From assembly GCA_043739185.1 (NCBI GenBank), contig JAYUEN010000155.1, forward strand, positions 30,732 to 94,731: 64,000 nucleotides of DNA, read 5' to 3'. The first letter of the stretch is position 1. Each line of letters starts with the position of its first letter. Below the pieces are notes generated by a model. That model was not told the DNA's origin. It made no database searches and worked only from the letters and a program-made list of their open reading frames with translations. Below are positions 14,522-59,285 of this stretch, one piece after another. This DNA is from Bdellovibrionales bacterium (GTDB lineage: Bacteria > Bdellovibrionota > Bdellovibrionia > Bdellovibrionales > JAMPXM01). The position numbers were made by a program, and so were the translations under genes.

Positions 14522-14907
14522 AAGAAATCTACTTTCGTTTCGGATTTGTGAGCAATATCAAATGCAGAGTACTGCAAGCAGATACAATCAAACAAACACA
14601 GAAACGCCGCATCAACCAGAAAAAGCTAAAAACTTAAGCAGTGGTTTTTAAGGCATTTTTAATTTTTTATTGACCTATGTGATACTATCCTGCAAGGAGA
14701 TTTGCCCCGCACGCTAATTTTTCTCGAGCTTTTGGTGAAAAATTTTAGAACTAGGCTCCAGATAAATTGTGTGAATTTCGGGCGTTTCAAAGTTTTTTGT
14801 TGAAATGAGAGGAAGAATGACGCTTGAATGTAATTTGAATTTATTTTTCAAAGCATGAAGGCTCTTCAGGCAAGCTGTCTCAAAGAGGCCGAGAAGGAAT
14901 AGGATCA

Positions 14908-16806
14908 GTGTCAAAAAAAATTACCAGCAGTAGTACCGCCGAATATTTTGCAAAGAATTTGCAACAGGTCGGATTTTCGTCACCTCTCAAAGCGGTTTTA
15001 ACCACACTCAAAGAAGCAGTCGATAATTCGTTAGATGCGTGCGAAGAAAATTCAATTTTGCCGGACTTAAAGGTTTCAATAACTAAAATTGGTGAAGGCA
15101 GTTCAAAGTCGACCGATTTAATCAAGATCGTAGTTGAAGACAATGGGCCAGGCATTGATCCCGATGATATTGCAAAAGTTTTTGGTGAATATTTAGCTTC
15201 AAGCAAATTTGGTAAAGGTCAATGTTCTAGAGGCCAACAAGGGATTGGTATTTCTGCAGCGACTACTTGGGCACAATTGACCAATGCCTCAGGAGTTCAA
15301 GTAACGACTATTCAAAAAAATATGCGAAAGGCAATTAGCTGCCTAGTAGATGTCGACATTAAAGCAAATAAAGGCGTGGTAAAGAAAAAAGAGAGCATTG
15401 ACTGGGATCGCCCTCATGGCACGCGAGTCGAGTTTCGCATTGATGGCCGAATTCAACTCAATGGTGACGGCGGATTATTGACCTATCTTGAAGGCACCAC
15501 ATTAGTGAATCCACATATGAGTTTGGATTATAAAGTAGTCGATCAAGACTGGGTAAAAGTGAAGCGTGTCACCGATGTCTGTCCAGAAATTCCTGAAAGT
15601 ACACTTCCACATCCGCATACGATGAAGCTTGGCGAATTCATGACACATGCTCATCTTTTTGGGAAAGTCGATTTCTCTAAATTTCTTAAAACCGGTTTTT
15701 CAAGAGTGAATGATCAGACCGTTAAGGAATTGGTGAAGATTGGTATGCCGAAGTCTTTGCTCAATATGCCAGTAATGAAAATGAAAGAGGGCGAGTTCAA
15801 AGCGGCCTTTCAAGTTATTCAAAAAGCTGAATTGCAAAGTCCGTCGACTAAATCGGTTTTGACAGTTGGTGAAGAAGCACTTTCAAAAAGTATTATGCGA
15901 TTAGGTGATATCGATTTCTTTTCGGTGGTTACACGTAAACCTCGCATTTGTGATTTCAAACCAGTAGTGGTCGAAGTAGCGCTGGCGCGTTTTTTAACTC
16001 GTGGAAGTATGGATGAATCTATTCAGCTTTTACGTTTTGCCAATCGTGTACCTCTTCAGTTTGATAAAAGCTCGTGCGCAATCACGCAGGCAGTTGAAAG
16101 TGTCAATTGGCGTTCTTATGGATTGGCTCAGGGTAAAGATAGTATTCCGGCAGGGCCATATGTTTTTGCCATCAGTGTGGTTTCGCCATTTATTAAATTT
16201 AAGAATGCTTCGAAAGAAACCATTGATGCCTCAGACGAATTGATTGAAGAAATTAGACGAACACTGATGCAAGCGGGGCAACAGCTTTCAAGACATATTC
16301 GCAAGGAAAATAAAGAAGCCGATCTTGAAAGAAAATTAGCCCATATTGAGCAATTTGGTCCGATTTTAGTTGAGGGCCTTGTGCGCATTACTGGCGCCAA
16401 TCAAACGCGTAAGAAAAATGCAGAGGACGGACTAAAGAAACTACTTGGACGGGATACTCGCGACGCTGAAAAAGATTTGTCAGTCGCTGAGGTAAGACTT
16501 CAAGCGCTTAAAGAAAAAGCTCTAAAAGCTGGAGTCAAATTTGATAAAAGGCATTCGCAAAGTGAATTGCTTGAAGCCGCTGAGCGCGGTGAAGAGTTAA
16601 CTGATTTTGAAGCACCAGGTGACGAGTCGGATGAAGCTTCTGACTCGAAAGAAAAATCCACACAAAAGGGCACAGGCAAGTCATCGACTGAGAAAGTGGC
16701 GCAAAGTACTGAGAAGTCAGCCACAACTAGCACTGAAAAAGCAGCTCAGGCGACGACTGCCAAGGCGACAACGGCCAAGGCCGCTCCTAAGAAAAAATCG
16801 AAATAA
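14908..16806 (+). CDS. top6B: DNA topoisomerase VI subunit B (GHKL ATPase) with a Lys/Thr/Ala-rich C-terminal tail
   Basis: The N-terminus 'AEYFAKNLQQVGF' is present, along with Bergerat-fold boxes 'EAVDNSLDACEE', 'VEDNGPGI' and 'GQQGIGISAA', and a transducer region. A GTG start follows AAGGA. Confidence 0.85.
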   Translation: MSKKITSSSTAEYFAKNLQQVGFSSPLKAVLTTLKEAVDNSLDACEENSILPDLKVSITKIGEGSSKSTDLIKIVVEDNGPGIDPDDIAKVFGEYLASSKFGKGQCSRGQQGIGISAATTWAQLTNASGVQVTTIQKNMRKAISCLVDVDIKANKGVVKKKESIDWDRPHGTRVEFRIDGRIQLNGDGGLLTYLEGTTLVNPHMSLDYKVVDQDWVKVKRVTDVCPEIPESTLPHPHTMKLGEFMTHAHLFGKVDFSKFLKTGFSRVNDQTVKELVKIGMPKSLLNMPVMKMKEGEFKAAFQVIQKAELQSPSTKSVLTVGEEALSKSIMRLGDIDFFSVVTRKPRICDFKPVVVEVALARFLTRGSMDESIQLLRFANRVPLQFDKSSCAITQAVESVNWRSYGLAQGKDSIPAGPYVFAISVVSPFIKFKNASKETIDASDELIEEIRRTLMQAGQQLSRHIRKENKEADLERKLAHIEQFGPILVEGLVRITGANQTRKKNAEDGLKKLLGRDTRDAEKDLSVAEVRLQALKEKALKAGVKFDKRHSQSELLEAAERGEELTDFEAPGDESDEASDSKEKSTQKGTGKSSTEKVAQSTEKSATTSTEKAAQATTAKATTAKAAPKKKSK

Positions 16807-16818
16807 AGGGTCAATTTC

Positions 16819-17982
16819 ATGGATAAAATCATTCGCATTCGAAAACTAACTAAAGATATTCCTGCTGAGGCCAAGGCCCTTTGCGATATGATGTTGAAGG
16901 AACTTGAAAACTCAAATCGCCCAGTTCTAGAGGCGGTTAAGTGTTCGCTTGATAATTCTCTTTACAATCCAAAAGTGGGTTATCTGACGCCTGGAAGTAA
17001 AAGAGTGCGAACCGAACTCAATGTCTCGAGTGTTCAAAAAATGGCCCGCGTGGTTTTCATGCTCGAAGTACTACTGCGAAATATTAAGACCGGCGCAGTC
17101 AATACCAAGCGCGAACTTTACTACATCGGAAAAGGTATGGTGAAGTCTTCAACCAATCTAAAGCCGCTCGATTTCACCGCGCAAGAAGAGAGCGATTCAA
17201 TTATAGATTTCATAGGTGATATGCTTGAAGTTTACCGCGAAGAGCTTAATTGTTTTGCCAATGATCGTGGTGGTCAAACTTACTCGCAGCATTTAGTGGT
17301 TACTGAAACCTTACCTGATGGTGATAAGGCGGTGGTCGATTTGAGCTCGCTCGGAACCACACCTTTTCAGCCTAAAAATAAGCCTCAAGCTTTGAGATTG
17401 AAAGCTAAGAAGAAAATTGAATTCTGTCTAGTTGTTGAGTCCGAAGGTACGGCGGGAACTCTCGTCGCAAATGGTATGACCAAGAGACATAATTGTATTG
17501 TCATGGGTGCTCAAGGAGTACCTTCAAATGGCGTGCGTGGCTGGTGTAAACTTATTCAGACAGAACTCAAGGTTCCAATTTTCTTTTTCGGAGATCTCGA
17601 CGCCTATACTTTACAAAATATCTTTCGAACTTTGAAAGCTGGTTCGGCGGCTTCTTTAATAAGAAACTCAGACTTTTCTGCTCCCTCGGTGCATTTCTTA
17701 GGTGTTTTGCCAGAAGACGTAAAAAAATATGATTTGGATTGTTATGAAGTGCGCGAAAAGGATCCGGTTGAATCGCGCTCACTTAAGAAGGCAAAAGACG
17801 CTTTGGCAAATGATCCGTTTTTTCAAGATAAGAAAAACCGCAAACTAGCTGATATTTTAAACTGGTTAGTAAAAAATAAATTGCGCTGCGAGCAACAGGC
17901 ATTGTTTGCGGTCAATCCAAACGATCCTTTGACGCCTGAAAAAATCATTGTGGATAAAATTCGCAGCGGCTCTTACGTTTAA
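16819..17982 (+). CDS. top6A: DNA topoisomerase VI subunit A (Spo11-type)
   Basis: The catalytic-Tyr motif 'KRELYYIGKG' is at Y101/Y102. Toprim residues 'LVVESEG' and 'FFFGDLDAYT' are present. The gene starts 12 nt after top6B. Confidence 0.85.
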   Translation: MDKIIRIRKLTKDIPAEAKALCDMMLKELENSNRPVLEAVKCSLDNSLYNPKVGYLTPGSKRVRTELNVSSVQKMARVVFMLEVLLRNIKTGAVNTKRELYYIGKGMVKSSTNLKPLDFTAQEESDSIIDFIGDMLEVYREELNCFANDRGGQTYSQHLVVTETLPDGDKAVVDLSSLGTTPFQPKNKPQALRLKAKKKIEFCLVVESEGTAGTLVANGMTKRHNCIVMGAQGVPSNGVRGWCKLIQTELKVPIFFFGDLDAYTLQNIFRTLKAGSAASLIRNSDFSAPSVHFLGVLPEDVKKYDLDCYEVREKDPVESRSLKKAKDALANDPFFQDKKNRKLADILNWLVKNKLRCEQQALFAVNPNDPLTPEKIIVDKIRSGSYV

Positions 17983-20109: not shown

Positions 20110-20493
20110 TTAAATATCGAGTTCAATACTTCGGCCCACCGGTCGAATTGAAAGTGCAGCTAGCTTGAAATGCTGAACTCCAAATGGAATTCCAATGACG
20201 CTGATACAAAATAAAATACCAAGACCTAAATGACCCAAAGCTAGCCACCATCCCGCGACAATGAACCAAACAATATTGCCGAGCGTGCTGAGAGCACTGA
20301 GCGCAGGAGCAGATTCTCTTTTTTCAATTTTAGATCCGAATGGCCAGAGATTCATGAGCGCAATATTAAAACAAGCTTTCGCCCAAGGAATTCCGACGAT
20401 TGAAATGAGCATGATAAGACTTGCAATAAACCAACTGGTGGCCGTCGCAAAGCCACCTAAAAATAACCACAATAGATTGAGAATAATATTCAT
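20110..20493 (-). CDS. yccF: YccF-family inner membrane protein
   Basis: It contains 'LNLLWLFLGGF' and duplicated 'IVGIPW/VIGIPFG' motifs, is 127 aa, and is collinear with E. coli YccF as I remember it. Confidence 0.85.
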   Translation of the reverse strand: MNIILNLLWLFLGGFATATSWFIASLIMLISIVGIPWAKACFNIALMNLWPFGSKIEKRESAPALSALSTLGNIVWFIVAGWWLALGHLGLGILFCISVIGIPFGVQHFKLAALSIRPVGRSIELDI

Positions 20494-21377
20494 ATATGAC
20501 TCTTGGTTTTTAGAAGTTTGGATTTGAGTTGCTCAATAAGCCGATTTTCTTGGTCTTCAAGACCAATAGGCGTCCAGATGGAGTAGGGGATTTTCTTTTT
20601 TGTCAATTGAGCCTCTAACCCATGAAGGTGAAGTGCGCCAATGACCAGAACTTTTATTCCCTTGAGTTGCTCAAGCTGCAAAACAAAATTGTCGTTTCGC
20701 TGTTGTAAAAGATTTTCAAATTGGTCTAGAGATTTTGATATTTCAGAGTTTAGATTTTCAAGGACAAATTTAAGACTGGAATCTCGTGGTAGGCGCAAGA
20801 CCTCAGCAGCTTTATTTAAGTAGGACTCGCGATCTTGCGGACTAAGTTGGGGGTCCTCAAGGCGCATTTTAAAGCCTGCAAAGCCACGTAAATTTGAAAG
20901 TGCTAATAAGTTATCATGAATGAGCTGCTCGCGATCACCACAAGCCACGACTAAATTGTTTTTATATTTTGCTTTTATTTTATAGGCTATTGGCGCAAGA
21001 AGAGAATCGATATTGTGTTTTTGACTCAGTTCTCCTGTGAGATCATCAACAGACCAACCGTTAATTTTTACACTCGTTTGGTTTTCAATTGGCCCTTCGC
21101 AACCTTCGGCAAGCAGAGAGTCAATGGTATGCCCCTCTACCCAAGTAGAGAGCTGAGTGTAGATTGCCAATTGATTGGCCTCTTGTGGTGGATGCTCGCT
21201 CGGAATTGGACCTGAACCTAAATGCCATTGGGGAATTAAAATGACGCCTTCATCTTTTATCATTTGGGTGCGCGTCCAAGTGCCCAATTTCAAATTGCTA
21301 ATATTTGAAATTGGTTTTGGTGTCGAAACGCAGCCCACCAAGAGGTAAAAGAAAACATAGCAAATATTGAATTTCAT
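20490..21377 (-). CDS. Lipoprotein, hypothetical (possible TraB/GumN/Tiki-like fold)
   Basis: It has the lipobox 'LLVGC'. The C-terminal 'VLVIGALHLHGL' resembles the GAxHLxG motif of TraB/GumN proteins. This is a weak assignment. Confidence 0.45.
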   Translation of the reverse strand: MKFNICYVFFYLLVGCVSTPKPISNISNLKLGTWTRTQMIKDEGVILIPQWHLGSGPIPSEHPPQEANQLAIYTQLSTWVEGHTIDSLLAEGCEGPIENQTSVKINGWSVDDLTGELSQKHNIDSLLAPIAYKIKAKYKNNLVVACGDREQLIHDNLLALSNLRGFAGFKMRLEDPQLSPQDRESYLNKAAEVLRLPRDSSLKFVLENLNSEISKSLDQFENLLQQRNDNFVLQLEQLKGIKVLVIGALHLHGLEAQLTKKKIPYSIWTPIGLEDQENRLIEQLKSKLLKTKSHI

Positions 21378-21486: not shown

Positions 21487-22953
21487 ATGAAAATTGTAAT
21501 TCAGCTCGCTTTGTCCATTTTTTTGTTTACAGCCTGTTCGTCTCTAGTTAATCGCGCGGATAAGCTCTATGAAAACGAGTCATACGAAGAAGCTGCAGAG
21601 CTCTATGAGCAAGTACTAAAAACCTCTCCGAATAACGATGAGGTCTGCATTTCTCTTAATAAAACCCATTTAAAAATTATTGATCGCAAACTCATTCAAA
21701 TTCGAAAATATCGTTTGGCCGGTGATCAGTGGGAGAGTACAAAGCAACTTTTACAATTGGTCGAAAGTGAAAGCAAATGGCAACACTATCCAAAAGGGCC
21801 TGTGGCATTTACTCAAGGCGAGGAAGCGAGATTTTCGACGCAATTTATTGAACACCAAATGAATTTGGCTCTCGAGCAGGGCCTGGCTTTAAAAGCCCTT
21901 TCGCATTTACGAACTTATGCGCCAATCTTCGCTGACGTCAAGGACACAGAAATTGATAAGTTTGAAGGACGCATCAATCAAGCTGGTGAAAAGCAATGCC
22001 AAAAGCTCAGCGCGGATATTCGAAAGGATCACTTTTTTTACCAAGAATTCACCAAGAAGTTTTGCGACTTTTGGTCCGTGCAAATAGCAAAAAAGCAAAT
22101 TCGCATGATACAATTGCCAAATTATTTATATAAAGCATTGCAGCTCAATTTTTCTGTCAATTCATTTCCCCCTGACGAAATTTCATTTTTGACAGATGAA
22201 TTGGCTGCGGCTTTTAAGGCATCACCTTGGTTCTCTGTCGATAGTTCGAAAACGCTGTTGATGAATATCACGGGCGATTACAAGCACGATGAGCGCAAAG
22301 ATCAGGTTCACTTGAGTCACTCATATGAAGTTAAAATCCCATACACCGAAGTACATACCGAGAAGAAACGCGAGCCTCCGCACGATGTGCTTGGTCAGAC
22401 CCTTGCAGTCTTGGGCGCCTTTGCAGTTTTGGGTGATACCTATTCGACAAGCATCGATAACAAAGATGGAACTGAAACAATAACTGAGCATAAAGTGAGG
22501 CTTGAGCCTCGAATTTATGAATATTCAGCTACGCAATATTCACAGAGTTTTAAACTAGGCTTCAATACAGAGGCAACTTTAGAAAAAGCCAGATTTAGTT
22601 TCAACTATCAAAGCGAAAAGCAGAACAAAAGTATTGAACACCATAATGATTTGCCATCAATTGGATTGTTCCCTGCAGCGGCTAAGCTCCTAAGTAACCA
22701 TGACTTTATTTCAGAGAGTACAATCGCAATGAAAACGCAGTTTACTTTAAAAGCAAAAGATCAGTGGAAGGAACAATTTTGCAGGCTCACAAATTCAGAC
22801 TACAAGCTCACTGATTATTCTGAAGCAGTTTTACGTTGTTTGTATGCTGATTTGAATCCGGTGCCGGATTTTGTGGATGATTGGTTTTTAAAGAATTTTG
22901 GTCTTAAGACGGCAGAGGCGCGTAAACGAATGCAGATTGGCTTTGTGAATTAA
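21487..22953 (+). CDS. Lipoprotein, hypothetical, with an N-terminal TPR-like segment
   Basis: It has the lipobox 'LFTAC' and 'YENESYEEAAELYEQVLKTSPNNDE'. The rest is unrecognised. Confidence 0.5.
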   Translation: MKIVIQLALSIFLFTACSSLVNRADKLYENESYEEAAELYEQVLKTSPNNDEVCISLNKTHLKIIDRKLIQIRKYRLAGDQWESTKQLLQLVESESKWQHYPKGPVAFTQGEEARFSTQFIEHQMNLALEQGLALKALSHLRTYAPIFADVKDTEIDKFEGRINQAGEKQCQKLSADIRKDHFFYQEFTKKFCDFWSVQIAKKQIRMIQLPNYLYKALQLNFSVNSFPPDEISFLTDELAAAFKASPWFSVDSSKTLLMNITGDYKHDERKDQVHLSHSYEVKIPYTEVHTEKKREPPHDVLGQTLAVLGAFAVLGDTYSTSIDNKDGTETITEHKVRLEPRIYEYSATQYSQSFKLGFNTEATLEKARFSFNYQSEKQNKSIEHHNDLPSIGLFPAAAKLLSNHDFISESTIAMKTQFTLKAKDQWKEQFCRLTNSDYKLTDYSEAVLRCLYADLNPVPDFVDDWFLKNFGLKTAEARKRMQIGFVN

Positions 22954-23606: not shown

Positions 23607-26600
23607 TTACTTAGCGCCTGGACAATTTGCGATTGCAGTGCTTTCGCAAACTCCGAATCCATTTGGGTTAGCTCGTGCGCAAGCTTTTACTGCGATATTA
23701 TAAGCAGACTTCAAGTCTGACGCTGGACCGCTTGGGTATTGCTTACCATTCGGGCCGGTCGCTACACACGAAGCTGGTGGTGGCGGCGGTGGCGGAGGAG
23801 GTGGTGGCGCATTCACATAGTCACAGCTTAAGAAATCAGTATTGCTACAGTCGTTTACATCTGTTCCGTCAGCAGTCACACAATTTGAGATCGCGCGATT
23901 GCGAGCTTTATCTGTGTCAAAGCTTTGAAAGTTAAACGATGTAGATACGTTCGGTACTGTTACACTACACATCATTGGATTCAAAACTGAATTGTCCAAT
24001 GCAACACAAGTAACATTGTCTGGGCTTGAACAAGCGTCGACATCTGTTGTTGCGTCATCAGCAATACAAATTTGTTGCGCCATTTGTGAAGCGTAGTCAG
24101 CATCGCGACCTTTTCTGATAAAGGTCACAGGGTTTCCGTCAGCATCAGTACTGCTCGTTGAACAGCTTACGACTGGGGCATAAGAAATACCATCATCGCA
24201 AGACAAATTCGCTTTACACTCAGTCGCATTGGCACTTGTACTAGCCGTACAATGATTGATTGCCCTTTGCGAAGCAGTTCCCGAATCAGGAGCGACCCCA
24301 ACGAATTTAAGATCGCCACTGAAGGTACGGCAAGTCACATTTACAACTGGCATTGGCGGTGGAGCTGGTTCTTCGTAAACTATGTTTGAAGACACATGTT
24401 CGCGAACATCAGCCGCTTGCTCAAGAGCAACGATTGCATTTAAGATTGCAATCCCGGTAGCAACGGGCGAATAATCCGTAACCGTAGGTACGAATACATC
24501 TGAATTGTATGGGCTCTCAAGATCAAGACGACCTTTGAAGGCAACATGCAAGCTTCCACGATCTACGAAACCTTCAACCATAACTTGTCCGCCACCTAAA
24601 TTACGGTAGTGGTTGATTACGATATCATTTGGTCCGAAGTAGAATCGACCAGAAACATAGTTTGAGATTTGCGCATTGAGTTTATCTGTTAAAACCTCAA
24701 GAGCAGTTCGGTAGTAAGTGTGGCGATAGTAGCTCATTCCACTCACTTCAATTGCTAAGTCACGCATTGTATCGGTAGGATAAAATACGCGAGCATAACG
24801 GAATGGGCGGATTGGATAGCTATAGCAATATGAATCGCCATAGTACTGACAATAGAAAGCATGATTATCAGAGTCGTCAAACATCCATAAAACCAGTGGG
24901 TTCCAGAAATGTTCATGGATTCGGATGTCAACGCGTACTGGGTAAGCGTATCCACCACGAAAACCGTGATCGTAATAACTGCTGTAATATTGACGATAAG
25001 TTTTTGTTGGTTCGTTGTAATAGTTATTGTAAACACGTGAACGCTCAACAACTACGTTTTGATAATTATTTACATAAACATTAGTCACATGCGTAATGTT
25101 TTTTGTGATGGTAACACTGGTCACATCGGTCTTATTGATAATGCGATTGTGCATTTCTTCAGAGCGAATATGTCCATCATGAATATTTTGTTGAGTTTCA
25201 TGATTGGCCATATGACTTGGTACCGCGACACCTGCAACTACGATAACTGGCTTTTCAATAATTTTAACAGGTACGACAACTTTAACTCGAACATTTGGAT
25301 CAAATCCAATTCTCACTCCGCCTACAACTTTCAATTCAACTACTGGAGCCGAATGAACAGGGGCCGCAATAACTGGCTTGTCTTCGCGTCTTGCTTGTCG
25401 GTTTTCATATTCTTTTTTGTTGTGCTCAATTACTTTAGCTTGAGCAGCACTTACAGTTTGATTTGGGTTTTGGCTCGCTTGAATGATTTGAGTTTTTTGC
25501 AAAACTATCACTTCTCTTTGCTTTTGAACTGCAACTACTTCTTTTTTCTGAACAGCAGCAACTTCAACTTCAGCAGCTTTTACTTCTTTTGCTTGCTTTA
25601 CTTCAGCTGATTTTACGGGCTCAGCAATGCGTGTTTTTGCTTTCGCTCGCTCCTGATCAGCTTTTGCTCTTTCTTCTGCAATTTGCTGAGGTGTCTTAAC
25701 CACTACTGGGTTTTGCGATTGAGCTTGAACTTGAATAGCCTTGCGTTCTTGGGCTTTTTGAGCCGCAATTTGCTTAGCTTTTTCGTCCGCAGCTTTTTGC
25801 GCAGCCTCTTCTTTTGCGCGCTGAGCTTCGATGGTTTTTGCATCATTGGCTCTTTGTGCAGCTTCATGCGCTATTTTTTGAGCTTCTTGATCCTTTTGTG
25901 CACGTTCAATTGCCGCTTGTGCTGGTGTTTGGTTTTGTGCAGTTTTTAATTTATCTGCAACACTGGCTTTGTCTTCAGCTTTAGCAACGATTACTGGCGG
26001 TGGTCCTACTGGATTCTGCGGAGCAGGCTTACGATTTGCCTTATCCTGTGCTTCTCGAGCAGCTTTGTCAGCAACAGCTTTATCAGCAGCAGCTTTATCA
26101 GCTTTAGCTTTTGCTTCTTGAGCAATCTTGTCTTTTGCAGCTTGTTCAGCTTTCACTTTATCTTGCGCGGCTTTATCTGAAGCGGCCTTATCAGCGGCAG
26201 CTTTATCTTTAGCAGCTTGTTCAGCTTTCACTCTATCTTGAGCGGCTTTATCTGAAGCGGCCTTATCAGAGGCAGCTTTATCTTTAGCAGCTTGTTCAGC
26301 TTTCAATTTATCTTGCGCGGCTTTGTCTGAAGCGGCCTTATCAGAGGCAGCTTTAGCTTGTGCGTCTGCTTGAGCTTTACGTTGAGCTTCGGCTTGGGCT
26401 TGAGCTTGGGCCTTGGCTTGTGCATCTTGTTGGGCTTTAGCTTGCGCTTCGGCTTGGGCTTTACGTTGCGCTTCGGCTTGAGCTTGTGCTTGAGCCTTAG
26501 CCTGTGCGTCTTGTTGGGCTTTAGCTTGCGCTTCGGCTTGGGCTTTACGTTGCGCTTCGGCTTGAGCTTGTGCTTGAGCACGAGCCTGTGCATCTGCTTG

Positions 26601-26897
26601 AGCACGTGCTTGTGCATCTGCTTGAGCTTTGCGTTGTGCTTCTGCCTGGGCTTGTGCTTGGGCGCGAGCCTGTGCTTCGGCCTGAGCTTTAGCTTGTGCT
26701 TGAGCTTCGGCCTGTGCCTTCGCTCTTGCTTCGGCTTCAGCTTTCGCTTTGGCTTCGGCTTCAGCTTTCGCTTTTGCGGCGGCCTGGTCTTGCGCCGGAG
26801 TAGTAGCTCCAAATGCTGAGCTTGATGGCAGAGATGATGCGATCATCGAAACTGCAATCAAGGCTATCAGAAATGGAGATTTTAAGTTTTTCTTCAT
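23607..26897 (-). CDS. Large secreted repeat protein (1096 aa): signal peptide, Ala/Gln/Lys/Glu repeat region, Tyr/Asn-rich core, four 4-Cys modules, Pro11 linker
   Basis: The single long ORF starts with the signal peptide '[30 protein letters not shown]'. It has its own terminator. The architecture was read directly from the translation. Confidence 0.8.
26131..26360 (-). repeat. Coding tandem repeat, 75-bp period, about 3 copies (25-aa unit [16 protein letters not shown][LV]KAEQAAKD)
   Basis: Near-identical units start at 26161, 26236 and 26311 on the plus strand. Confidence 0.85.
26357..26600 (-). repeat. Coding tandem repeat, 84-bp period, about 3 copies (28-aa unit [28 protein letters not shown])
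   Basis: A stretch of about 70 nt starting at 26425 recurs at 26509, an offset of 84. Degenerate GCTTGx periodicity continues to about 26790. Confidence 0.85.
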
Positions 26898-34404: not shown

Positions 34405-34857
34405 ATGCCATCACTTTTCAAAAAGAAGTTGAAATTGAATCAAGCCGGATTCGGGATTGTTGAGTCTATGGCCAGTATTGGCATTTTAGTTACTGCAACC
34501 TTTGGTTTCATGGCTTGCTATAGATTTAGCATTGACTCATTTACCGAGGTTAAGAAAAGGGCCGCAGCTGTCGAACGGCTGAATAACGTTATTGAAACTT
34601 TTCGATTTAGAGGTCAGGCCGATCTTGTTGTCTATGATATAGCGGGGAATATAGTTGTGAATTTGAAAAGCGCATACGATCAAAACGGGAATCTCCTACC
34701 GGGATATTTTCAGGTCGGACCTGATGCCGATGCGGATACCCTTGCTTACAATCTCAATCCTGATAACAAACAGTTTGGCACGAAATACAAATATGCGGTC
34801 ACTTGGGTGGGTGTGTCGGGTCAGTTAAAAACAATCTCATACGAGGTATTTAAATGA
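34405..34857 (+). CDS. Type IV pilin-like minor pilin (small, PilV/FimT-like)
   Basis: The N-terminus is 'LNQAG|FGIVESMASIGILVTATFGF', with Glu+5. It overlaps the next gene by 4 nt. Confidence 0.6.
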   Translation: MPSLFKKKLKLNQAGFGIVESMASIGILVTATFGFMACYRFSIDSFTEVKKRAAAVERLNNVIETFRFRGQADLVVYDIAGNIVVNLKSAYDQNGNLLPGYFQVGPDADADTLAYNLNPDNKQFGTKYKYAVTWVGVSGQLKTISYEVFK

Positions 34858-37352
34858 TCAAAATTCATAAAGACAATCGAGGTTTTGTTTTACTTTGGAG
34901 CCTAGCAATGTCAGTCGTTGTAGCGAGCATCGGACTAGCACTTCTTGGAAGTGCCATTATGGTTACGAATTCGGCTTCTAGTACACTACAAAAAGACATG
35001 ACTCAGATCGAAGCAGAAAATCTTTCTCGCATCGCCTTCAACTTGATGAAATCGACGCTTCAAGAAAACAGCGACCTCACGTCTGATCAATTGACCGTTA
35101 TTTTGAACGACAAATTAGTTTCTATACTCAAACCAGGTTATAGTATAAATAATTTTTCGGTTAATATTGACCCGAATCTGTTTATATCACAAATCCCAGG
35201 GGGACCCTTTCGCGGATTGCAGTCTCAAAATCGTGCATTGACAATGGATTTGGTTTTGTATCACAACCCTTCTCGTACGACAGCCAAGTTTGACTTAAGT
35301 GCCTACCTTGGCAATATTTATCCGACACAATTTAACTTTTTCTCGTTTGCGGATTTGCAAAACTTAAACGCTATTCGAAGTGTCAATACCTCTGGACGTA
35401 TTTTCGCGAACGATTTTGCCTATATTGGTAATTATGGTGGTTACTCGCCCTTTACTATGGATTTCTTTGCGACCGCCGGAAATTTTTATAATATCCCAGG
35501 TTGGAATACGCGGGTAGCAAAGGTTCAAAATCCAAGCGCAAGTACTGACTATGTAATTGTACCTGATCCCATTGATAATAATTGTACGAACTGTTCTGGT
35601 TCTGGATTGGGTTTTTATAAATGGGCAAGCAATACCTGGAATGGCCAATTTCAAGATAGTCATTTCGGCGTTCAAAGACTTGATTACTGGTTTGGCAACG
35701 ATACTTTTCTCAATATTCCTAGAATCAGTAGCCCACCGGGAGAACTCGTTAAGTATCAACTTGCATATCAAGCCGATATTCGAATCATAAATGGCGTTTG
35801 GTATCTTAAGAATCCGAATAGTGTTTCGCAGTGGCCAGGACTACCCATTTGGTCGGATCATCCCGGAAGTATGACGGCTTGGAATGAAAATGATCACGAG
35901 GGATCACAAGCTGTGGGACAAGATGATATCGCCGCAAACTTAACGGCGCTTGCGCTTTCAACTGCCTGGCCGGCAGGAACAATGCCGCAAAAATTTAGTT
36001 ATTATAAAGTGAATCCGGCAACAGGCGCTATAGATACTGCCAATTTTCAAGGTATTGTATCTTACGGAAACCTTCAAAATACCACCACTACGGGTGCGGG
36101 CAATTGGCTTCCAGGAGACTTTGTCGGAGACCCCCTCTGTAACGCAGGATTTACCTGCCAGAATTGTGGCGGCGGAGGAGTAGTTAAAACAAAAAGCATC
36201 GCGAACTTCACGCCTCAGTGTGCGAACGCTCTTGGTGTCGCAGGCCTTTCACCAAATAGGGGCGCACGCCTTCTCAATGCCACACGCAGTGGTTTTAAAT
36301 TTGGATTTGCCAACTATATTGCTACCAACCACGCATCTACCTCAAAAATTTGGCCAATGAATTTTGATCTCGTTCAATTTCAAAATGCACTAACTTGTGG
36401 TGCGGGACATCCCGGAGAGCTCGGCTGCTACTTTGGGGCAGGAAAATACATGGGCAGAGAGTTTAATGGCATTGTTTATATTAACAATACCTGGAAGAAC
36501 CAACTGCAAAAGACCCAGTATCCATTTATGCAAAATGATGCTCAAGTCGACGCAGTATTTGCGGGTGCGACCAATAACGATCCCTGGCAGCCCGCAGTAA
36601 CTCGGGGTGGCTCGGGTCCAATTCAAAATCAAATTTTGCCAATGCAGTTATGCTCAGACTCCCAAAAGGGTTTAGGATTCGATTCCCCTTTGGGTACAAA
36701 TCTTTTTAAAATTCCGGACTGTGCGAAGTACAAAGATCATTCGACCTTTGCCGCTCGCACCAATGCCTTGCGAGTTATAAATGGTGGAATTGATCCTACG
36801 AAATTCACAAAAGGTCTTACTATTTATAGTCCCGTGCAAATTTATGCGACTGGTGATTTGAATCCAAACTCTGATGTGACGACAGTGACATCAACCCCTT
36901 GGATGCCGCTCTTTCTGGCCTCGGCATCAATCATACCATTGTCAAATGCATGGGATGACTCAAATGCACCGTGGGACCAGTCTCCGGGCGCCATTTACCG
37001 ACAAGCAAGAAATACCAAACAAATAATGACTGCAACCTATGGGCACGATACTGGTCCCGATTTTGATGAGGTTTGGTCTGGAACTCAATACGAAAAGCGC
37101 GGTGGTAATATTGTATTTCCGACGCTCTTGGGCGCAGATGATTACAGTAATTTTTATTGGCGAGAAGATCCCAATATTCAAGTCGTTTATTTAGGACCTG
37201 GAGTTTTTGTGAATCCGGACACAATGAATTATTTGGAGGACCCACACTATCAAGTCTACAACAATCAGCCTGCCGGAATGATGCCTGTAAATGTAGTATC
37301 TATTAATTCATGGATCAAAAAGACAAGAGAGACGGCAAGTACGGGGCCGTAA
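34854..37352 (+). CDS. Large pilus-associated protein (832 aa) with a PilX-like pseudopilin N-terminus; candidate tip adhesin
   Basis: The N-terminus is 'KDNRG|FVLLWSLAMSVVVASIGLALLGSAIMV', with no Glu+5. The long Asn/Gly/Trp-rich body matches no family I recognise. Confidence 0.55.
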   Translation: MIKIHKDNRGFVLLWSLAMSVVVASIGLALLGSAIMVTNSASSTLQKDMTQIEAENLSRIAFNLMKSTLQENSDLTSDQLTVILNDKLVSILKPGYSINNFSVNIDPNLFISQIPGGPFRGLQSQNRALTMDLVLYHNPSRTTAKFDLSAYLGNIYPTQFNFFSFADLQNLNAIRSVNTSGRIFANDFAYIGNYGGYSPFTMDFFATAGNFYNIPGWNTRVAKVQNPSASTDYVIVPDPIDNNCTNCSGSGLGFYKWASNTWNGQFQDSHFGVQRLDYWFGNDTFLNIPRISSPPGELVKYQLAYQADIRIINGVWYLKNPNSVSQWPGLPIWSDHPGSMTAWNENDHEGSQAVGQDDIAANLTALALSTAWPAGTMPQKFSYYKVNPATGAIDTANFQGIVSYGNLQNTTTTGAGNWLPGDFVGDPLCNAGFTCQNCGGGGVVKTKSIANFTPQCANALGVAGLSPNRGARLLNATRSGFKFGFANYIATNHASTSKIWPMNFDLVQFQNALTCGAGHPGELGCYFGAGKYMGREFNGIVYINNTWKNQLQKTQYPFMQNDAQVDAVFAGATNNDPWQPAVTRGGSGPIQNQILPMQLCSDSQKGLGFDSPLGTNLFKIPDCAKYKDHSTFAARTNALRVINGGIDPTKFTKGLTIYSPVQIYATGDLNPNSDVTTVTSTPWMPLFLASASIIPLSNAWDDSNAPWDQSPGAIYRQARNTKQIMTATYGHDTGPDFDEVWSGTQYEKRGGNIVFPTLLGADDYSNFYWREDPNIQVVYLGPGVFVNPDTMNYLEDPHYQVYNNQPAGMMPVNVVSINSWIKKTRETASTGP

Positions 37353-40014: not shown

Positions 40015-40857
40015 TTATTGTAGGCCGTTTCCGCGAAGTATTCTGAGGGTCATTTCTTTCGCCTGCTCGCCGCCTGGGCGCTTCAAACTTTGTGCATCAT
40101 TGTCGAGAAATTTTAATACAGTTAAGAGTTGAAAGCCGTGGCCCTCGATGTGGCCAAGAAACCACCCAATACGAGTTCGCCCACGTTCACCAACAAAGCC
40201 AGAGCCGGTCTTGCCACTTAAAAAGAATCCGTGAGGGAGACTTTCAAGTTGAGTAATCATTTTGGTTTTTTTATAGGCTTCTAATGAAATTTTAAAACTT
40301 TGCTTCCAGTAGCCTTTCATAAATTCAAGTTGCTCTTTCGGGGAAATCAGAAGACTCGCAGCACCTGGTCCCTTCGATTTTGTACTGAGCCAAGCCGTGG
40401 TGAGCCCTGCAGAGAAATCTTGATTCCCGTAATTGAACATTTTCAAATATTCGGAGATTTTCTCTTTGCCAAGTTCTGGAGTTAAAGTTTGGGAAACCCA
40501 GACGACTGAATCCTTCATCCAACTCTCGGGGTTTTGATCTTGATTCCATGAACTGATCGGGCGATTCACGCCATCCCACTTGAAATTGGTCTTCTCATCT
40601 GCAATTAAATTTGCATCAAAGGCCATCAATGCAAGCGGAATCTTAAAGGTCGATGTTGCCGGCGCACGTTCGGTGCAATTACTTCCGCCACGTTCGGCTA
40701 CTATCTTTTCGGTATTGAGATCGTAAGCAATAAAACAAGCTTCAAGATCGCGAAAAATTTCATCTTTAACTTTGAGTTTACCTGAGCCTGGCTTTCTCAA
40801 TGAAGCACAGCTTGAAAGTGTCATGAGCAGCAGGAGAAAGAGAGTAAAAAATTTCAT
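40015..40857 (-). CDS. Class D (OXA-type) beta-lactamase-like / penicillin-binding-domain lipoprotein
   Basis: It has the lipobox 'LSSC' and the class D motif set 'STFK', 'YGNQDFS' and 'SGKTGSG'. The ATG at 40857 follows GAGG, which overlaps the upstream stop. Confidence 0.8.
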   Translation of the reverse strand: MKFFTLFLLLLMTLSSCASLRKPGSGKLKVKDEIFRDLEACFIAYDLNTEKIVAERGGSNCTERAPATSTFKIPLALMAFDANLIADEKTNFKWDGVNRPISSWNQDQNPESWMKDSVVWVSQTLTPELGKEKISEYLKMFNYGNQDFSAGLTTAWLSTKSKGPGAASLLISPKEQLEFMKGYWKQSFKISLEAYKKTKMITQLESLPHGFFLSGKTGSGFVGERGRTRIGWFLGHIEGHGFQLLTVLKFLDNDAQSLKRPGGEQAKEMTLRILRGNGLQ

Positions 40858-40865
40858 ATTCAACC

Positions 40866-42116
40866 TCAAAACCTTTCATCTATAATTCGTTTTAACTTTC
40901 CGGTGCGTAGATTCGAAAGCAATTCATGTGGCGCCACAAATTCAATAAGAACAGGGTGCATTTTTTTGTTCTGAACGAGATCGCGACAGACGGGTCGTTC
41001 TCGCTCGAGGTGTCTTTGCAGTTCTTCGGCGGTAATTTTGCCGATACTGGTTTTGGCAATGCGAATGACCAGTTGATCTAGTTTCTCAAAATGTTTGATA
41101 ATGAGTTGAAAACCAGAAGACTTTAGTTCATTTTGAAATGGATGCAGAAAGCTTGCAAGATCGTCATAGTAAAGTGTTGTAGGGCCAACACGCGCGCCCT
41201 CTTCAGAGCGGCCGAGGATTCTAAATTTACGTTCATTTTGAACGGACTCAGAATCGATCCATTCTCCCATATCGCCAACAGGATAGCGAATGATGGGCAT
41301 CAATCTTCGAGTCAGATTGGTTAGAATTATTTTGCCTCGCTGGCCGGTCTTGTGAATGGGTAGACCTGTATCTGGATCAATAATTTCAAGAATTGAATGT
41401 TTTGAAAATACTCGGTGTTCTTCAGGAGAACAACTGGCGTCAGCAAAGCCAATGTGGCCGCCATCTACGCTGGCATATCCGATCGATCGAATTTGCACTC
41501 CGGGAAAAAGTGAAGTCAAATGCTCGCGTTGATCGGGATAAAAACTTTCGCCTCCAAAAAGAACTTTACTTGGTGGCTGGGCATTGGCTTTGGAGACACT
41601 CTCGGCAATTTTCATTAGAGTTGTTGGCGGGCCGGCCCAAACATCTACTTTAAATTCATTTAAAATTTTCAAGATGCTTTCGATTTCGGCCATTCCACTC
41701 AGTGGCAATTGTATAGTTTGGCAGTTTGAACTTTCAATAGCCTTCATAATAAAAATAAAAGAAGCATAAAGATCACCGGCGTAAAAAAAATTAGCAATGC
41801 GTTCGCCGTTTTGAATGGCCATGCGACTCATTCCTTGGCCAAAGATATCAGCAAGGACTTGCCATTCGTCCCTTGAGAAATACGAAAATTTGGCATTGCC
41901 TGAGGTGCCACCACTTTTAAATACGATGCCATCTTTTTGTGGACCGGTTAAAACTTGGTTCTTGATCGGAGCGTTCATAGGCCAAAACTGACTGCTATCA
42001 ATAAGGGGCAATTCTTCGATTTTGGGCTGCGCTGAAAGATTTTTATAAAGATCCTTATAAAAAGGCGAATTCTTTTTGGCAAATTGATAAAGGATTAAAA
42101 ACGTATCGGGCTGCAT
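40866..42116 (-). CDS. PaaK/coenzyme-F390-synthetase-like adenylate-forming ligase
   Basis: It contains 'FKSGGTSGNAKFSYFSRDEW', 'YPVGDMGEW' and C-terminal 'GKLKRIIDER'. The ATG at 42116 lies 1 nt after the upstream stop and follows AGAGG. Confidence 0.75.
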   Translation of the reverse strand: MQPDTFLILYQFAKKNSPFYKDLYKNLSAQPKIEELPLIDSSQFWPMNAPIKNQVLTGPQKDGIVFKSGGTSGNAKFSYFSRDEWQVLADIFGQGMSRMAIQNGERIANFFYAGDLYASFIFIMKAIESSNCQTIQLPLSGMAEIESILKILNEFKVDVWAGPPTTLMKIAESVSKANAQPPSKVLFGGESFYPDQREHLTSLFPGVQIRSIGYASVDGGHIGFADASCSPEEHRVFSKHSILEIIDPDTGLPIHKTGQRGKIILTNLTRRLMPIIRYPVGDMGEWIDSESVQNERKFRILGRSEEGARVGPTTLYYDDLASFLHPFQNELKSSGFQLIIKHFEKLDQLVIRIAKTSIGKITAEELQRHLERERPVCRDLVQNKKMHPVLIEFVAPHELLSNLRTGKLKRIIDERF

Positions 42117-42117
42117 T

Positions 42118-44649
42118 TCAATGTCCTCTTTGGTCAATAATTCTTAAGAGTTTACCGCTACCGGCTGATCTTACAAATTGAGTTTTGTCTGCGGGTTTAA
42201 TTATAAGTTCAAGCGACTTCTCATCGGTCACAAGTTCGAAAAGATCAGGATACTTAACCAGCAGTGCATTTTTGATTTCTTCAATGCTAAGCTTTGGATT
42301 GGCTGCAAGCACTGAATGATCAAGAACCAAAGTCAATTGATCGAGAGTTTTGGGCTTGGTTAAAATAATTTGATACTCATGAGAGTATGAAAACTCATTG
42401 GCTAGCACTTGGCCAAATTTATTGTAATTTAAAAAAGCTCCGGCAGCGCGAAAGATGTCTCCATGGCGTCCTAGCAGCTCAAATCTGGGAGAAAGACGCC
42501 CGCATTTGCAAGGTTCTTTCACCCAAGTACCTAAGTCGCCTAGATCGTAGCGTAGCAGATTGAGTCCTTGGCGACCATAGCTCGTAAATACCAGGCGACC
42601 TGGTTCAGAGGCTTTTACTGGAAGCTCATTTTCTAAATTGAGTATCTCGAGATGATGAAGATATTGATGGAGGTGATGAACTCCCGGCTCACAATAAAGA
42701 CATTGATAGCCGAGAGGGCCCATATCAACGCTACCATAAGTGGCCGAAATAATCGACTGAATGCCAAAGTCCTTTTTAAATCTCTCAATTTGCTTTTTAT
42801 TAAAAGCTTCGCCGCCATAAAATATCTTTTCGACAACCGGATGCTTTTTAAATAGTGCAGCTTGGGAATCAAAAAGCAGGGTGAGGTAGGAGGGCATTCC
42901 CATTAAAACATTCACTTTATTTTTGACGATGATATTTGCGACATATTCAAAATCCATATGAGCAGTCATCGGAAACTGCACCGCCTTTAAATCTTCAAGA
43001 ACTGAAAAGATACTCAAAAAACTTCCGTACAAACCGCCACTGAAAAAAAGATTCATACATTTATCAGTTGCGGGATTGAGACCAGCAGCAAGCAGGCCGT
43101 CAGAGGCAAAGCGCATTTGTCGGTGATAATCGAGATAGGTAAAAACTGATATCTTGGGCTCGCCTGAGCTTCCGCCGCTTTTGAAATACAATTCGGCGGC
43201 ATCAGCAGGTGGAGTCATTTTCTGAAAATCTTCTTTGGTCATCAGGCGATTTGGCAAATTGATGAGCTCAATTTTATTGAGATGCAAATCATCAAGAGTG
43301 GCATATTGATTGATTTCGACATTCTGTTGCAGGCTGACCTTTTTCATATAGCGGGTTAATGCAGAAACTCCGTCGTGTGGCTCGCCAGCATAACTATCGA
43401 GCATTTCACCAAGGGGACGAATACGTGTGACGCCAGCTTTAAAGAGAATTTGCATGAGTTCAAAGAGTTCATTTCTTTCACAGGAAAGTCCTGCGGTTTG
43501 CAAATATTGACTCAAAGGTCGTAAATGTGAAAGCAACTGCTGGCGCTTTATAGGCTTTAGCCAAATGCTGCGATACAGAGGTGATGCCCTAAGCCCCGGG
43601 CGACTGTCAATTAAGATACGCCATTTGCGATCAGGATCTTCAATGACCTTAGTGAAGTTTCGCGAAAGCGCACTCTCGGTTTCATTCACCAATACGACTC
43701 TTGAGATTTCGGCACTCTCAAGACCCTCTGGCATATTGAGCTTTTGAAGTTTCGCTCGCTTTTCAAAAGCCAATTTTAAAACCTGTGCGAATTCTTCGAG
43801 CTGTTCAAAACTTGCATCTTCAATAAAAACGCACTGTGGAGAAGAGCAGGCTTGTTGATCAAAGAGAAAAACATCGGTTGCAATGAGCTCGGCTAAATTC
43901 GCATCTGTTAGTTTTTTCTGGGTCAGATAAGAAAAAGAAATGCGATGGCCCCATTCAATTAGGCGTGCTCTCGCTGGCGTCATTTTTCGAATTTCAATCA
44001 AAGACTCTTCTCCGCCCCAGGCGACGACGCCATCTGCTTCGTCCAATATAGATTGAAGAAGTGTTTTTTCAGAGGACGAGATTTTGGCAATAATCAGTAA
44101 CTGTTGCCAGCATTTTGCGACCGGGTCTCTGAAAAATTCTTCAAAAAATAAAATTGTGAAATCACTGCTACTTTTACTGAGTTTAATAAAATTAATATTT
44201 CCGGTTAGGAGACCTTCAAAGGCGCTGAGAACTGCTAGCGAAGGAGAGTTTGCAGCTAGAAACTGCACTAGGAAACCAAGCGGGCACCAGGCTTCAAAGA
44301 TGGGAAATTGCCGAGAGACTTTTTGCGAGCGAAAAGGGTTGTCTGAGCCGAACTCTGAATACATTTTTGCGCGAAGTGCTTTTTCTTCGATGAATTGCTT
44401 GATTTCATTTAGGGCTATAGTGGCATCTTCAGAATTGCATTCACCTGAATCGACCAATGATTTGACCAAATGATTTCGCAGCTTTTGATCGGAAATTAAT
44501 TTTTGTGAAAAGCGATCGCAGGCGCGATAAAATTCGTCAATATTAAATGCAACATCGTGACCTTTAAAAATATATTCGTTAAGGCGAACGCAGCGCTTTT
44601 CAAGTTCAATATTTGATATGAGGTCGCCTTGCCAGAAGTTTTGACTCAT
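42118..44649 (-). CDS. Fusion protein: N-terminal LuxC-like acyl-CoA reductase (ALDH fold) plus C-terminal PaaK-like adenylate-forming ligase
   Basis: The N-terminal half has the 'FDQQACSSPQCVFIED' catalytic-Cys motif typical of LuxC. The C-terminal half has 'FKSGGSSGEPKISVFT', 'YDLGDLGTW' and 'GKLLRIIDQR', and is paralogous to the next gene. An ATGA overlap links it to the upstream gene. Confidence 0.7.
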   Translation of the reverse strand: MSQNFWQGDLISNIELEKRCVRLNEYIFKGHDVAFNIDEFYRACDRFSQKLISDQKLRNHLVKSLVDSGECNSEDATIALNEIKQFIEEKALRAKMYSEFGSDNPFRSQKVSRQFPIFEAWCPLGFLVQFLAANSPSLAVLSAFEGLLTGNINFIKLSKSSSDFTILFFEEFFRDPVAKCWQQLLIIAKISSSEKTLLQSILDEADGVVAWGGEESLIEIRKMTPARARLIEWGHRISFSYLTQKKLTDANLAELIATDVFLFDQQACSSPQCVFIEDASFEQLEEFAQVLKLAFEKRAKLQKLNMPEGLESAEISRVVLVNETESALSRNFTKVIEDPDRKWRILIDSRPGLRASPLYRSIWLKPIKRQQLLSHLRPLSQYLQTAGLSCERNELFELMQILFKAGVTRIRPLGEMLDSYAGEPHDGVSALTRYMKKVSLQQNVEINQYATLDDLHLNKIELINLPNRLMTKEDFQKMTPPADAAELYFKSGGSSGEPKISVFTYLDYHRQMRFASDGLLAAGLNPATDKCMNLFFSGGLYGSFLSIFSVLEDLKAVQFPMTAHMDFEYVANIIVKNKVNVLMGMPSYLTLLFDSQAALFKKHPVVEKIFYGGEAFNKKQIERFKKDFGIQSIISATYGSVDMGPLGYQCLYCEPGVHHLHQYLHHLEILNLENELPVKASEPGRLVFTSYGRQGLNLLRYDLGDLGTWVKEPCKCGRLSPRFELLGRHGDIFRAAGAFLNYNKFGQVLANEFSYSHEYQIILTKPKTLDQLTLVLDHSVLAANPKLSIEEIKNALLVKYPDLFELVTDEKSLELIIKPADKTQFVRSAGSGKLLRIIDQRGH

Positions 44650-48182: not shown

Positions 48183-48297
48183 TCCCAATATTTTAGCTTA
48201 CTTAGAGCCGGTGGCAATGAGTATACTAAGGCCACGATTTTTGACGGCCTTAGGTCGAGGTCATTTTATTGAGTCGATCGCTCTGCCGATCGGCAGT

Positions 48298-49506: not shown

Positions 49507-49531
49507 GAGCACAACGAAACTTAACTTATTT

Positions 49532-59214: not shown

Positions 59215-59285
59215 GGATATAATTTACAGCAATGAAAGCAGCTTGGGCTACAAAAAAGAATGGGCTTCCCAGACTCGACCTAACG

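Follow-up and report, generated by a model that had tools for sequence, protein, structure and literature searches.

Type IIB topoisomerases attract interest as models for Spo11 and as targets for drugs or herbicides, and the best studied of them is the topoisomerase VI (topo VI) of Methanosarcina mazei. The bacterial representatives were surveyed by Allen & Maxwell in 2024, who include Bdellovibrio bacteriovorus in a set of 17 bacterial families that have topo VI, place its B subunit (Top6B) outside both bacterial clusters of their tree, terming it 'anomalous', and find from AlphaFold models that bacterial Top6Bs are without the immunoglobulin-like (Ig-like) C-terminal domain (CTD) (PMC11302465). 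A 2023 review of Bdellovibrio chromosome biology likewise credits B. bacteriovorus with topo VI (Bd2864), which it lists as an unusual enzyme of archaeal/plant type (PMC11318664). In the 2024 survey GyrA is present in all topo VI bacteria and ParC in only seven species, B. bacteriovorus not being among them, and the topo VI bacteria outside Pseudomonadota and Terrabacteria are reported to be without topo IV (PMC11302465). Its authors rationalise topo VI as a specialised decatenase in bacteria that have no topo IV, and in arguing for such a stand-in they cite their own unpublished complementation of an Escherichia coli parE-ts mutant by M. mazei topo VI (PMC11302465). Here, we describe a topo VI locus in a Bdellovibrionales bacterium (GenBank assembly GCA_043739185.1), contained in a 64,000-nucleotide stretch of contig JAYUEN010000155.1 (positions 30,732 to 94,731, forward strand), which we call the window and whose own numbering is used throughout. 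We consider it highly probable that the top6B–top6A operon of this locus is native to Bdellovibrionales and encodes a functional A2B2 type IIB topo VI, which most likely takes the place of topo IV.

The two genes and the regions that we delineate in their products are as follows:

14908-16806 (stop codon included), plus strand: top6B, DNA topoisomerase VI subunit B, 632 amino acids, GTG start
14908-15603, plus strand: GHKL/Bergerat ATPase domain of Top6B, residues about 1-232, with the E36, N40, D78xGxG and G109-G114 motifs
15457-15468, plus strand: loop L184-N185-G186-D187 within Top6B, aligned to the KGRR186-189 DNA-crossing sensor of M. mazei, non-basic
15604-15840, plus strand: H2TH domain of Top6B, residues about 233-311, aligned continuously to M. 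mazei 235-311, with a predicted helical bundle at 241-306
15841-16527, plus strand: transducer and C-terminal helical stalk of Top6B, residues 312-540, with W401-R402-S403-Y404 and the switch lysine K436
16528-16647, plus strand: acidic block of the Top6B tail, residues 541-580, net charge -9
16648-16803, plus strand: basic Lys/Thr/Ala-rich repeat block of the Top6B tail, residues 581-632, net charge +9
16819-17982 (stop codon included), plus strand: top6A, DNA topoisomerase VI subunit A (Top6A), 387 amino acids, ATG start
17035-17250, plus strand: winged-helix/5Y-CAP region of Top6A, residues 73-144, with R98-E-L-Y101-Y102
17422-17916, plus strand: Toprim domain of Top6A, residues 202-366, with E207, D259 and D261 aligned with the M. 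jannaschii structure 1d3y

The initial annotation of this DNA, made from the letters alone, had read the two genes as topo VI subunits B and A, the latter with a RELYYIGKG motif and an intact Toprim E...DxD, and profile, structure and fold searches all bear this out. The two open reading frames (ORFs) lie exactly where it had placed them, on the same strand; they are separated by a 12-nucleotide spacer (TAA-AGGGTCAATTTC-ATG) that carries an AGGG ribosome-binding site, and this co-orientation and spacing point to an operon layout. For the B subunit, the NCBIfam equivalog NF003218 matches at 510.7 bits (cut-off 274) up to residue 536, TIGR01052 falls slightly below its cut-off (377.0 versus 380.7), and Pfam recovers HATPase_c (7.6e-11) and the transducer family Topo-VIb_trans (PF09239, 5.5e-46) over residues 312-475. 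The sequence matches of the pair in the PDB are to the topo VI of M. mazei, Sulfolobus shibatae and Methanocaldococcus jannaschii, the best for Top6B being M. mazei 2q2e_B (2.8e-80, residues 2-470). The limits of the GHKL domain were carried over from those given for M. mazei in PMC13040014. Within that domain, the Bergerat motifs comprise the N-box residues E36 and N40, which align with E44 and N48 of M. mazei, the G1 box D78-G80-G82 and the G2 box SRGQQGIGIS (107-116, including G109-G114), the glycine boxes also corresponding between the two proteins. Further along the chain, the switch lysine K436 lies inside a conserved NASKETID motif, the WKxY-equivalent W401-R402-S403-Y404 shows a conservative K-to-R change that does not vary within the clade, and two long helices are predicted, spanning 443-495 and 499-540.

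These helices come from an AlphaFold (AF2) model of Top6B built from 40 homologues, whose mean predicted local distance difference test score (pLDDT) of 61.7 conceals a good GHKL domain (mostly 70-92) and a weak transducer. Foldseek searches of the PDB with this model returned Top6B chains for all of the best 16 matches (E-values of 7e-36 to 5e-27), with MutL, GyrB, MORC and Hsp90 appearing only at 1e-8 or worse, and the full-length matches were to Top6B only. An H2TH domain between the GHKL and transducer domains is a hallmark of type IIB enzymes. The other GHKL families that might have been confused with Top6B score far lower than the Top6B models: MutL (TIGR00585) reaches 16.2 bits against a cut-off of 180 (E about 1e-3, on the shared GHKL core only), histidine kinase models stay below 20 bits (E about 1e-3 on the same core, versus 4e-153 for the Top6B equivalog), and Hsp90 is found in the fold search at E-values of at least 1e-8, compared with 1e-27 to 1e-36 for Top6B chains.

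The A subunit comfortably exceeds the Pfam cut-offs for both TP6A_N (PF04406, 1.5e-13, residues 73-144) and TOP6A-Spo11_Toprim (PF21180, 7.1e-36). Its best NCBIfam model, NF003335, covers the full length (residues 3-387) at 400.2 bits, marginally below the cut-off of 424, and its best solved-structure match is M. jannaschii 1d3y (8e-33). RELYYIGKG occupies residues 98-106, and in the alignment RELYY (98-102) falls on the M. jannaschii REAYY, so that its second tyrosine lies over the catalytic one; from established knowledge of Spo11/Top6A we take Y102 to have this role. In the Toprim domain, the glutamate is found in VVESEG (205-210, E207) and the DxD in FGDLDAY (257-263, D259/D261). A Toprim nuclease of the JetD, MksG or Gabija type can be set aside, as Top6A has TP6A_N in addition to Toprim, its neighbours are housekeeping genes, and neither subunit matched any PADLOC defence model at E <= 0.01. 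Topo VIII and Mini-A are likewise ruled out by architecture and context, as each subunit has its own canonical gene and the neighbourhood holds no mobile-element genes. By its sequence, the pair is a genuine and intact archaeal-type DNA topo VI, with the B subunit encoded before the A subunit.

As to its role in the cell, gyrase but no ParC is reported for B. bacteriovorus, and neither ParC nor ParE for its lineage, and hence topo VI is most likely the decatenase of this lineage in place of topo IV. In the window itself, no gyrase or topo IV gene was seen among the 20 ORFs screened (the 10 flanking the pair and 10 other large ones). By homology with archaeal topo VI, a Top6A dimer would bind and cleave the G-segment by means of the catalytic tyrosine and Toprim-bound Mg2+, and ATP-driven dimerisation of the GHKL domains of Top6B would capture the T-segment and pass it through the break. 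Such strand passage would decatenate replicated chromosomes and relax supercoils, including the positive ones that arise during replication, and in the growing polyploid Bdellovibrio filament it would most likely serve to unlink the several chromosome copies before division.

The first respect in which the Bdellovibrionales enzyme departs from the archaeal prototype is a loop of the GHKL domain. The basic KGRR186-189 loop of M. mazei Top6B acts as a sensor of DNA crossings, and strand passage is lost when the loop is mutated (PMC5922973). The equivalent residues in the window protein are L184-N185-G186-D187, a correspondence that lies in an ungapped part of the HMMER alignment with M. mazei. 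All seven clade representatives examined have a QLNG(D/E)(G/A)G loop with zero K/R, making it invariantly neutral or acidic in the clade; among outgroup Top6Bs, at least one K/R is found in the 9-residue window of the loop in 102 of 109 proteins and at least two in 75 of 109. Of the trio of basic residues in the stalk and WKxY motif of M. mazei, only K401 keeps a basic counterpart (R402); N400 stands in place of K399, and Q458 in place of R457. The absence of a KGRR-type loop lowers confidence that the enzyme works in a manner identical to that of M. mazei, and leaves its membership in topo VI unaffected.

The second departure is the C-terminal tail. The initial annotation had remarked on an extra Lys/Thr/Ala-rich extension of about 90 residues in the B subunit; this is indeed present, as residues 541-632, and it is a feature of the whole clade rather than a peculiarity of this genome. 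It starts past the end of both the Top6B NCBIfam profile match and the solved structures, and divides into a 40-residue acidic block (20% E, 12% D) and a 52-residue basic block (25% K, 21% T, 19% A), the latter containing a 15-bp tandem repeat in 2.3 copies (16748-16781). Pfam assigns the tail to no family. In the AF2 model it is predicted to be disordered, with pLDDT below 50 in the acidic block and of 25-35, without secondary structure, in the basic block, and on these latter values we reject a folded Ig-like CTD such as that of M. mazei. The 120 closest homologues extend past residue 540 by a median of about 100 amino acids, always in the same arrangement, with an acidic block first, then K/T/A-rich repeats (TAKAATT type) and K or R at the very end; in cultured B. 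bacteriovorus a short version is seen (...EDLVEEASEPIGTKKTTTKKETTKKTTGKKK). The tail has a dN (rate of nonsynonymous substitution) of 0.28-0.31 versus 0.03 for the core, that is, it evolves about 10 times faster and keeps its composition. In most Top6Bs outside the clade, the C-terminus is a folded CTD of about 100-140 amino acids or an acidic tail, or is lacking, and a minority of outgroup Top6Bs have H1-like basic tails (e.g., P0165 and P0169); an organism name was available for only one of the 10 basic-tailed outgroup proteins queried, and it was Deltaproteobacteria. In an unrelated topoisomerase, Streptomyces TopA, lysine repeats stabilise the enzyme–DNA complex and confer processivity (PMC5714199). 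By analogy with these repeats, we infer that the Top6B tail might act as a non-specific DNA tether or as a self-regulating extension that raises the local affinity for DNA.

The loop and tail together raise the alternative that survives best, namely that this is a real topo VI that has been specialised or re-wired rather than a plain replacement for topo IV, with substrate recognition and regulation that would depart from those of archaeal topo VI, for instance for nucleoid tethering in the highly compacted attack-phase chromosome or for an autoinhibition that is relieved by DNA. Its appeal lies in the complete lack of K/R in the loop of the seven clade representatives as opposed to its presence in 102 of the 109 outgroups, in the conservation of the tail's composition in the face of fast turnover, in the 'anomalous' position of the B subunit in the published tree, and in the unusual chromosome biology of Bdellovibrio (PMC11318664). 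However, the ATPase and cleavage motifs are all canonical, low-complexity tails can be nearly neutral, and loop loss and basic tails are unlinked across the family. Indeed, basic tails are missing from those outgroups whose loop is not basic, and the basic-tailed outgroups keep the loop, on which ground we reject compensation of the lost KGRR loop by the basic tail as an explanation and retain it as speculation only. We regard re-wiring in general as the less probable course. Its most explicit version, in which the Bdellovibrionales enzyme has dispensed with the KGRR sensor, relies instead on tethering or gating by the bipartite tail, and is the sole dedicated decatenase of the predatory filament, is more tentative again. 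Were it true, the re-wired enzyme would offer a tractable bacterial model for DNA recognition by type IIB (and Spo11-like) enzymes.

Turning to the native topo VI that we favour, the evidence for its being functional comes from the constraint on both genes. The use of dN/dS is limited here, as the synonymous rate (dS) is saturated in most comparisons, leaving dN ranks and two dN/dS estimates as the usable measures. Against the two nearest genomes (L001 and L002), Top6A has a dN of 0.020-0.023, the lowest among nine neighbouring genes, and the Top6B core has one of 0.030-0.035, the second lowest; where these comparisons allowed dS to be estimated, dN/dS comes to about 0.01. Taken with the intact catalytic residues, the low dN indicates that Top6A and Top6B form a functional enzyme under strong purifying selection, with enzymatic activity predicted accordingly from conservation. 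The initial annotation had also described both ORFs as intact, which agrees with our finding of full-length genes with all catalytic motifs; top6B is likewise intact in 13 of the 14 other loci inspected. The one departure is B. bacteriovorus Bd5 (L059:9290-9370, NZ_CP168968.1), in which top6B has a 4-nucleotide gap relative to strains s4 and kdesi that shifts the frame after about codon 365.

Several points weigh against the reading of a functional topo VI that stands in for topo IV. The Bd5 frameshift, if real, would speak against the genes being strictly essential. That topo IV is absent is taken from a single paper, and the 2023 review lists a 'Top IV (Bd0005)' for B. bacteriovorus (PMC11318664). 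The same review gives 'Top II (Bd2865)' as an entry apart from topo VI (Bd2864), and both of these labels, Top II and Top IV, conflict with Allen & Maxwell (PMC11302465); Bd2865 probably encodes subunit B of topo VI, and Bd0005 probably a gyrase subunit. Further, in the literature searched we found no biochemical or genetic data on any bacterial topo VI. Finally, with a non-basic KGRR-equivalent loop and two of the three basic stalk/WKxY residues changed, the catalytic cycle may differ from the archaeal model. The Bd5 frameshift and the listed 'Top IV' gene could also be taken to mean that the two genes are decaying or dispensable remnants, redundant beside gyrase and possibly topo IV. We hold this to be very improbable in view of the intact ORFs in the window and in nearly all the other loci, the dN/dS of about 0.01 and the lowest dN values of the neighbourhood; moreover, both halves of the Bd5 gene are as conserved as intact orthologues, and so the shift would either stem from faulty assembly or have arisen very recently.

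The distribution of the pair bears on how this lineage came by a functional topo VI. A scan of a genome collection with one genome per prokaryotic species recovered 352 Top6A relatives, of which nearly all among the best 80 are labelled Bdellovibrionales, Pseudobdellovibrionaceae or Bdellovibrio; Top6A identity runs from 99% in the metagenome-assembled genome (MAG) GFS_7426 down to 75-78% in the closed B. bacteriovorus chromosomes and the Bdellovibrio sp. HCB isolates. The 120 closest Top6B clusters are 66-92% identical, those with names being Bdellovibrionaceae, and the NCBI label on the closest ones is already 'DNA topoisomerase VI subunit B'. The B gene lies directly upstream of the A gene in 16 of the 17 loci examined, and in the 17th, that of strain Bd5, the frameshift-split B gene still adjoins A. 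The pair is surrounded by housekeeping genes coding for RsmB, NusB, a phosphoenolpyruvate (PEP)-synthase regulatory kinase, FKBP, a glutaredoxin-like protein, an ABC exporter and YccF, of which all but the FKBP gene, whose association reaches slightly further, are shared only with the closest relatives. Such surroundings without mobile-element scars had been noted initially, and the annotation of the neighbours concurs, no integrase, transposase, conjugation or SMC-like gene being found among the ORFs screened around the pair. Compared with the window, the composition and codon usage of the genes are native: codon-usage distances are 0.098 for top6B and 0.118 for top6A on a background of 0.102 +/- 0.022, and their GC content is 0.42 versus 0.423. 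Lastly, an exhaustive outgroup search for Top6B across 1.84 billion representatives revealed a sharp gap, in that clade members are at least 57% identical and the next full-length protein is only 39% identical; the named relatives outside the clade (33-37%) are from the archaeal Methanolinea, Marine Group III and Nanobsidianus, and from one Deltaproteobacteria MAG.

The order-wide presence, the native codon usage and GC content, the lack of flanking mobile elements and the identity gap together argue that the topo VI pair is ancient, fully ameliorated and vertically inherited across Bdellovibrionales. It is thus no sporadic, recent arrival, and its initial framing as a bacterial oddity gives way to that of an order-wide gene pair which is both annotated and published for Bdellovibrionales. 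Any transfer of the pair is itself ancient, predating the diversification of the order. Recent horizontal transfer from an archaeon, or contamination during binning or assembly, with the genes carried passively and having no part in the physiology of the host, would fit with topo VI being typical of archaea, with the mostly archaeal nature of the nearest named relatives outside the clade, and with the archaea-to-bacteria transfers inferred in published trees (PMC11302465). Yet the pair is found across the order, including closed chromosomes of cultured strains, in close relatives it is syntenic with bacterial housekeeping genes, nothing outside the clade exceeds 39% identity, the codon usage and GC content are native, and the dN is the lowest nearby. 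Recent transfer or contamination is accordingly even less credible than decay.

The nearest Top6B outside the clade, P0128 (L081:8001-9659; also in L082), is of interest in its own right. This protein of 552 amino acids, 39% identical to the window Top6B and with a short K-rich end, is encoded on a metagenomic contig of 36% GC inside a phage-like replication/recombination module with genes for RuvC, a superfamily 2 (SF2) helicase (phrog_16), RecA, a DnaB-like helicase (phrog_19) and many ORFans. No Top6A partner was detectable on the 17.4 kb examined, and the 391-residue product of the gene just upstream showed neither detectable Top6A similarity nor a Pfam match. P0128 may hence be a Top6B borne by a virus or mobile genetic element, with a non-canonical partner.

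The suggestion that the pair is no topoisomerase but a GHKL ATPase and a Toprim nuclease of a defence system or mobile element (Wadjet JetD/MksG, Gabija, plasmid topo VIII or Mini-A) draws on the service of Toprim/Top6A-like nucleases in Wadjet and Gabija (PMC13040014), the occurrence of topo VIII and Mini-A in bacterial mobile elements (PMC4117785) and the phage-like setting of P0128, but it is the least probable of all, being at odds with the silence of PADLOC, the full-length subunits with H2TH and transducer domains that pass or nearly pass the topo VI equivalogs, the two unfused genes, the complete winged-helix domain of Top6A with its catalytic tyrosine, and the stability of the pair across the order.

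Upstream of the operon we found one further element:

14768-14856, plus strand: conserved non-coding block of 89 nucleotides upstream of top6B, probable promoter/leader

This block is about 90% identical to its counterparts in L001 and L002, and about 90% conserved across the three closest genomes (L001-L003), despite saturated synonymous sites; it was detected only in these closest relatives and not in more distant ones, and an Rfam search with it gave no match. It is probably the promoter or leader region of top6B. The block is followed at 14860-14890 by an inverted repeat (GGCTCTT...AAGAGGCC) that is shared with L002 and deleted from L001. Rfam and tRNA scans of the window returned no match. 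A scan for consensus promoters and terminators gave matches no more numerous than expected by chance.

Elsewhere in the window, a gene on the minus strand (23607-26897) codes for a predicted secreted protein of 1096 amino acids that combines about 300 residues of Ala/Gln/Lys repeats of the AQAKAEA/AASDKAA type with a Tyr/Asn-rich middle, Cys-rich C-terminal repeats and a run of 11 prolines, and that has no Pfam match; this repeat-rich gene accounts for the strong AT-skew and GC anomaly at 25-27 kb. A second gene on the minus strand (42118-44649) codes for an 843-residue protein in which a LuxC-type acyl-CoA reductase (3.8e-74) is fused to an AMP-binding (acyl-adenylate-forming) domain; the gene belongs to a co-oriented run (40015-49512) that resembles a fatty-aldehyde or lipid-modification cluster. 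Five ORFs coding for proteins of 295-832 amino acids had no Pfam match at thresholds of 1e-5 or 1e-4, namely 34854-37352, 59232-61151, 61151-63202 and 21487-22953 on the plus strand and 20490-21377 on the minus strand, and the window is rich in such lineage-specific proteins without an assigned function.

The presence of topo VI in this order is already known from RefSeq annotation, the 2023 review and the 2024 phylogeny, and the locus is not a new kind of system. What it adds is that the enzyme is order-wide, ameliorated and encoded by some of the most constrained genes of its neighbourhood, which favours a central housekeeping function, most likely decatenation in place of topo IV, in bacteria with an unusual filamentous growth that involves multiple chromosomes. 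Both the tail and the non-basic loop are genuine order-specific variants; neither the non-basic KGRR-equivalent loop nor the acidic-then-K/T/A tail was found described in the literature searched, and both provide concrete handles for purification studies of bacterial topo VI.

Set beside the known systems, the locus is closest to the B. bacteriovorus topo VI (Bd2864/Bd2865), which is its orthologue (Top6A 75-78% and the Top6B core 69-73% identical) and shares with it the B–A order and spacing, the QLNG(D/E)xG loop and the plan of an acidic and then K/T-rich tail. The flanking genes differ between the two, and the window tail is longer, with about 52 amino acids of K/T/A repeats as against about 20 in B. 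bacteriovorus (TKKTTTKKETTKKTTGKKK). With the M. mazei enzyme (PDB 2Q2E, 9O0G) it has in common the GHKL, H2TH, transducer and stalk regions of the B subunit and the winged-helix and Toprim domains of the A subunit, together with the ATPase and cleavage residues (the G-boxes, switch lysine, catalytic tyrosine and Toprim E and DxD). Unlike M. mazei, to which it is about 31-37% identical, it has no Ig-like CTD and carries a disordered charged tail of about 90 amino acids in its place. The other bacterial topo VIs, such as those of Myxococcota, Planctomycetota, Nitrospirota and Alphaproteobacteria, are likewise chromosomal two-subunit enzymes that always occur with gyrase, but they are at most 39% identical and keep a basic KGRR-type loop. 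In bearing a low-complexity, Lys-rich C-terminal extension on a topoisomerase, the Bdellovibrionales protein resembles the actinobacterial topoisomerase I (Streptomyces TopA); that enzyme is, however, of the unrelated type IA, and the repeats in the window are Thr-rich, preceded by an acidic block and not homologous to its own. Topo VIII and Mini-A, lastly, share the Bergerat ATPase and the Top6A-like winged-helix and Toprim core (PMC4117785), but topo VIII is a single fused polypeptide of mobile elements and Mini-A has no B subunit, whereas the window holds two chromosomal genes that match topo VI models.

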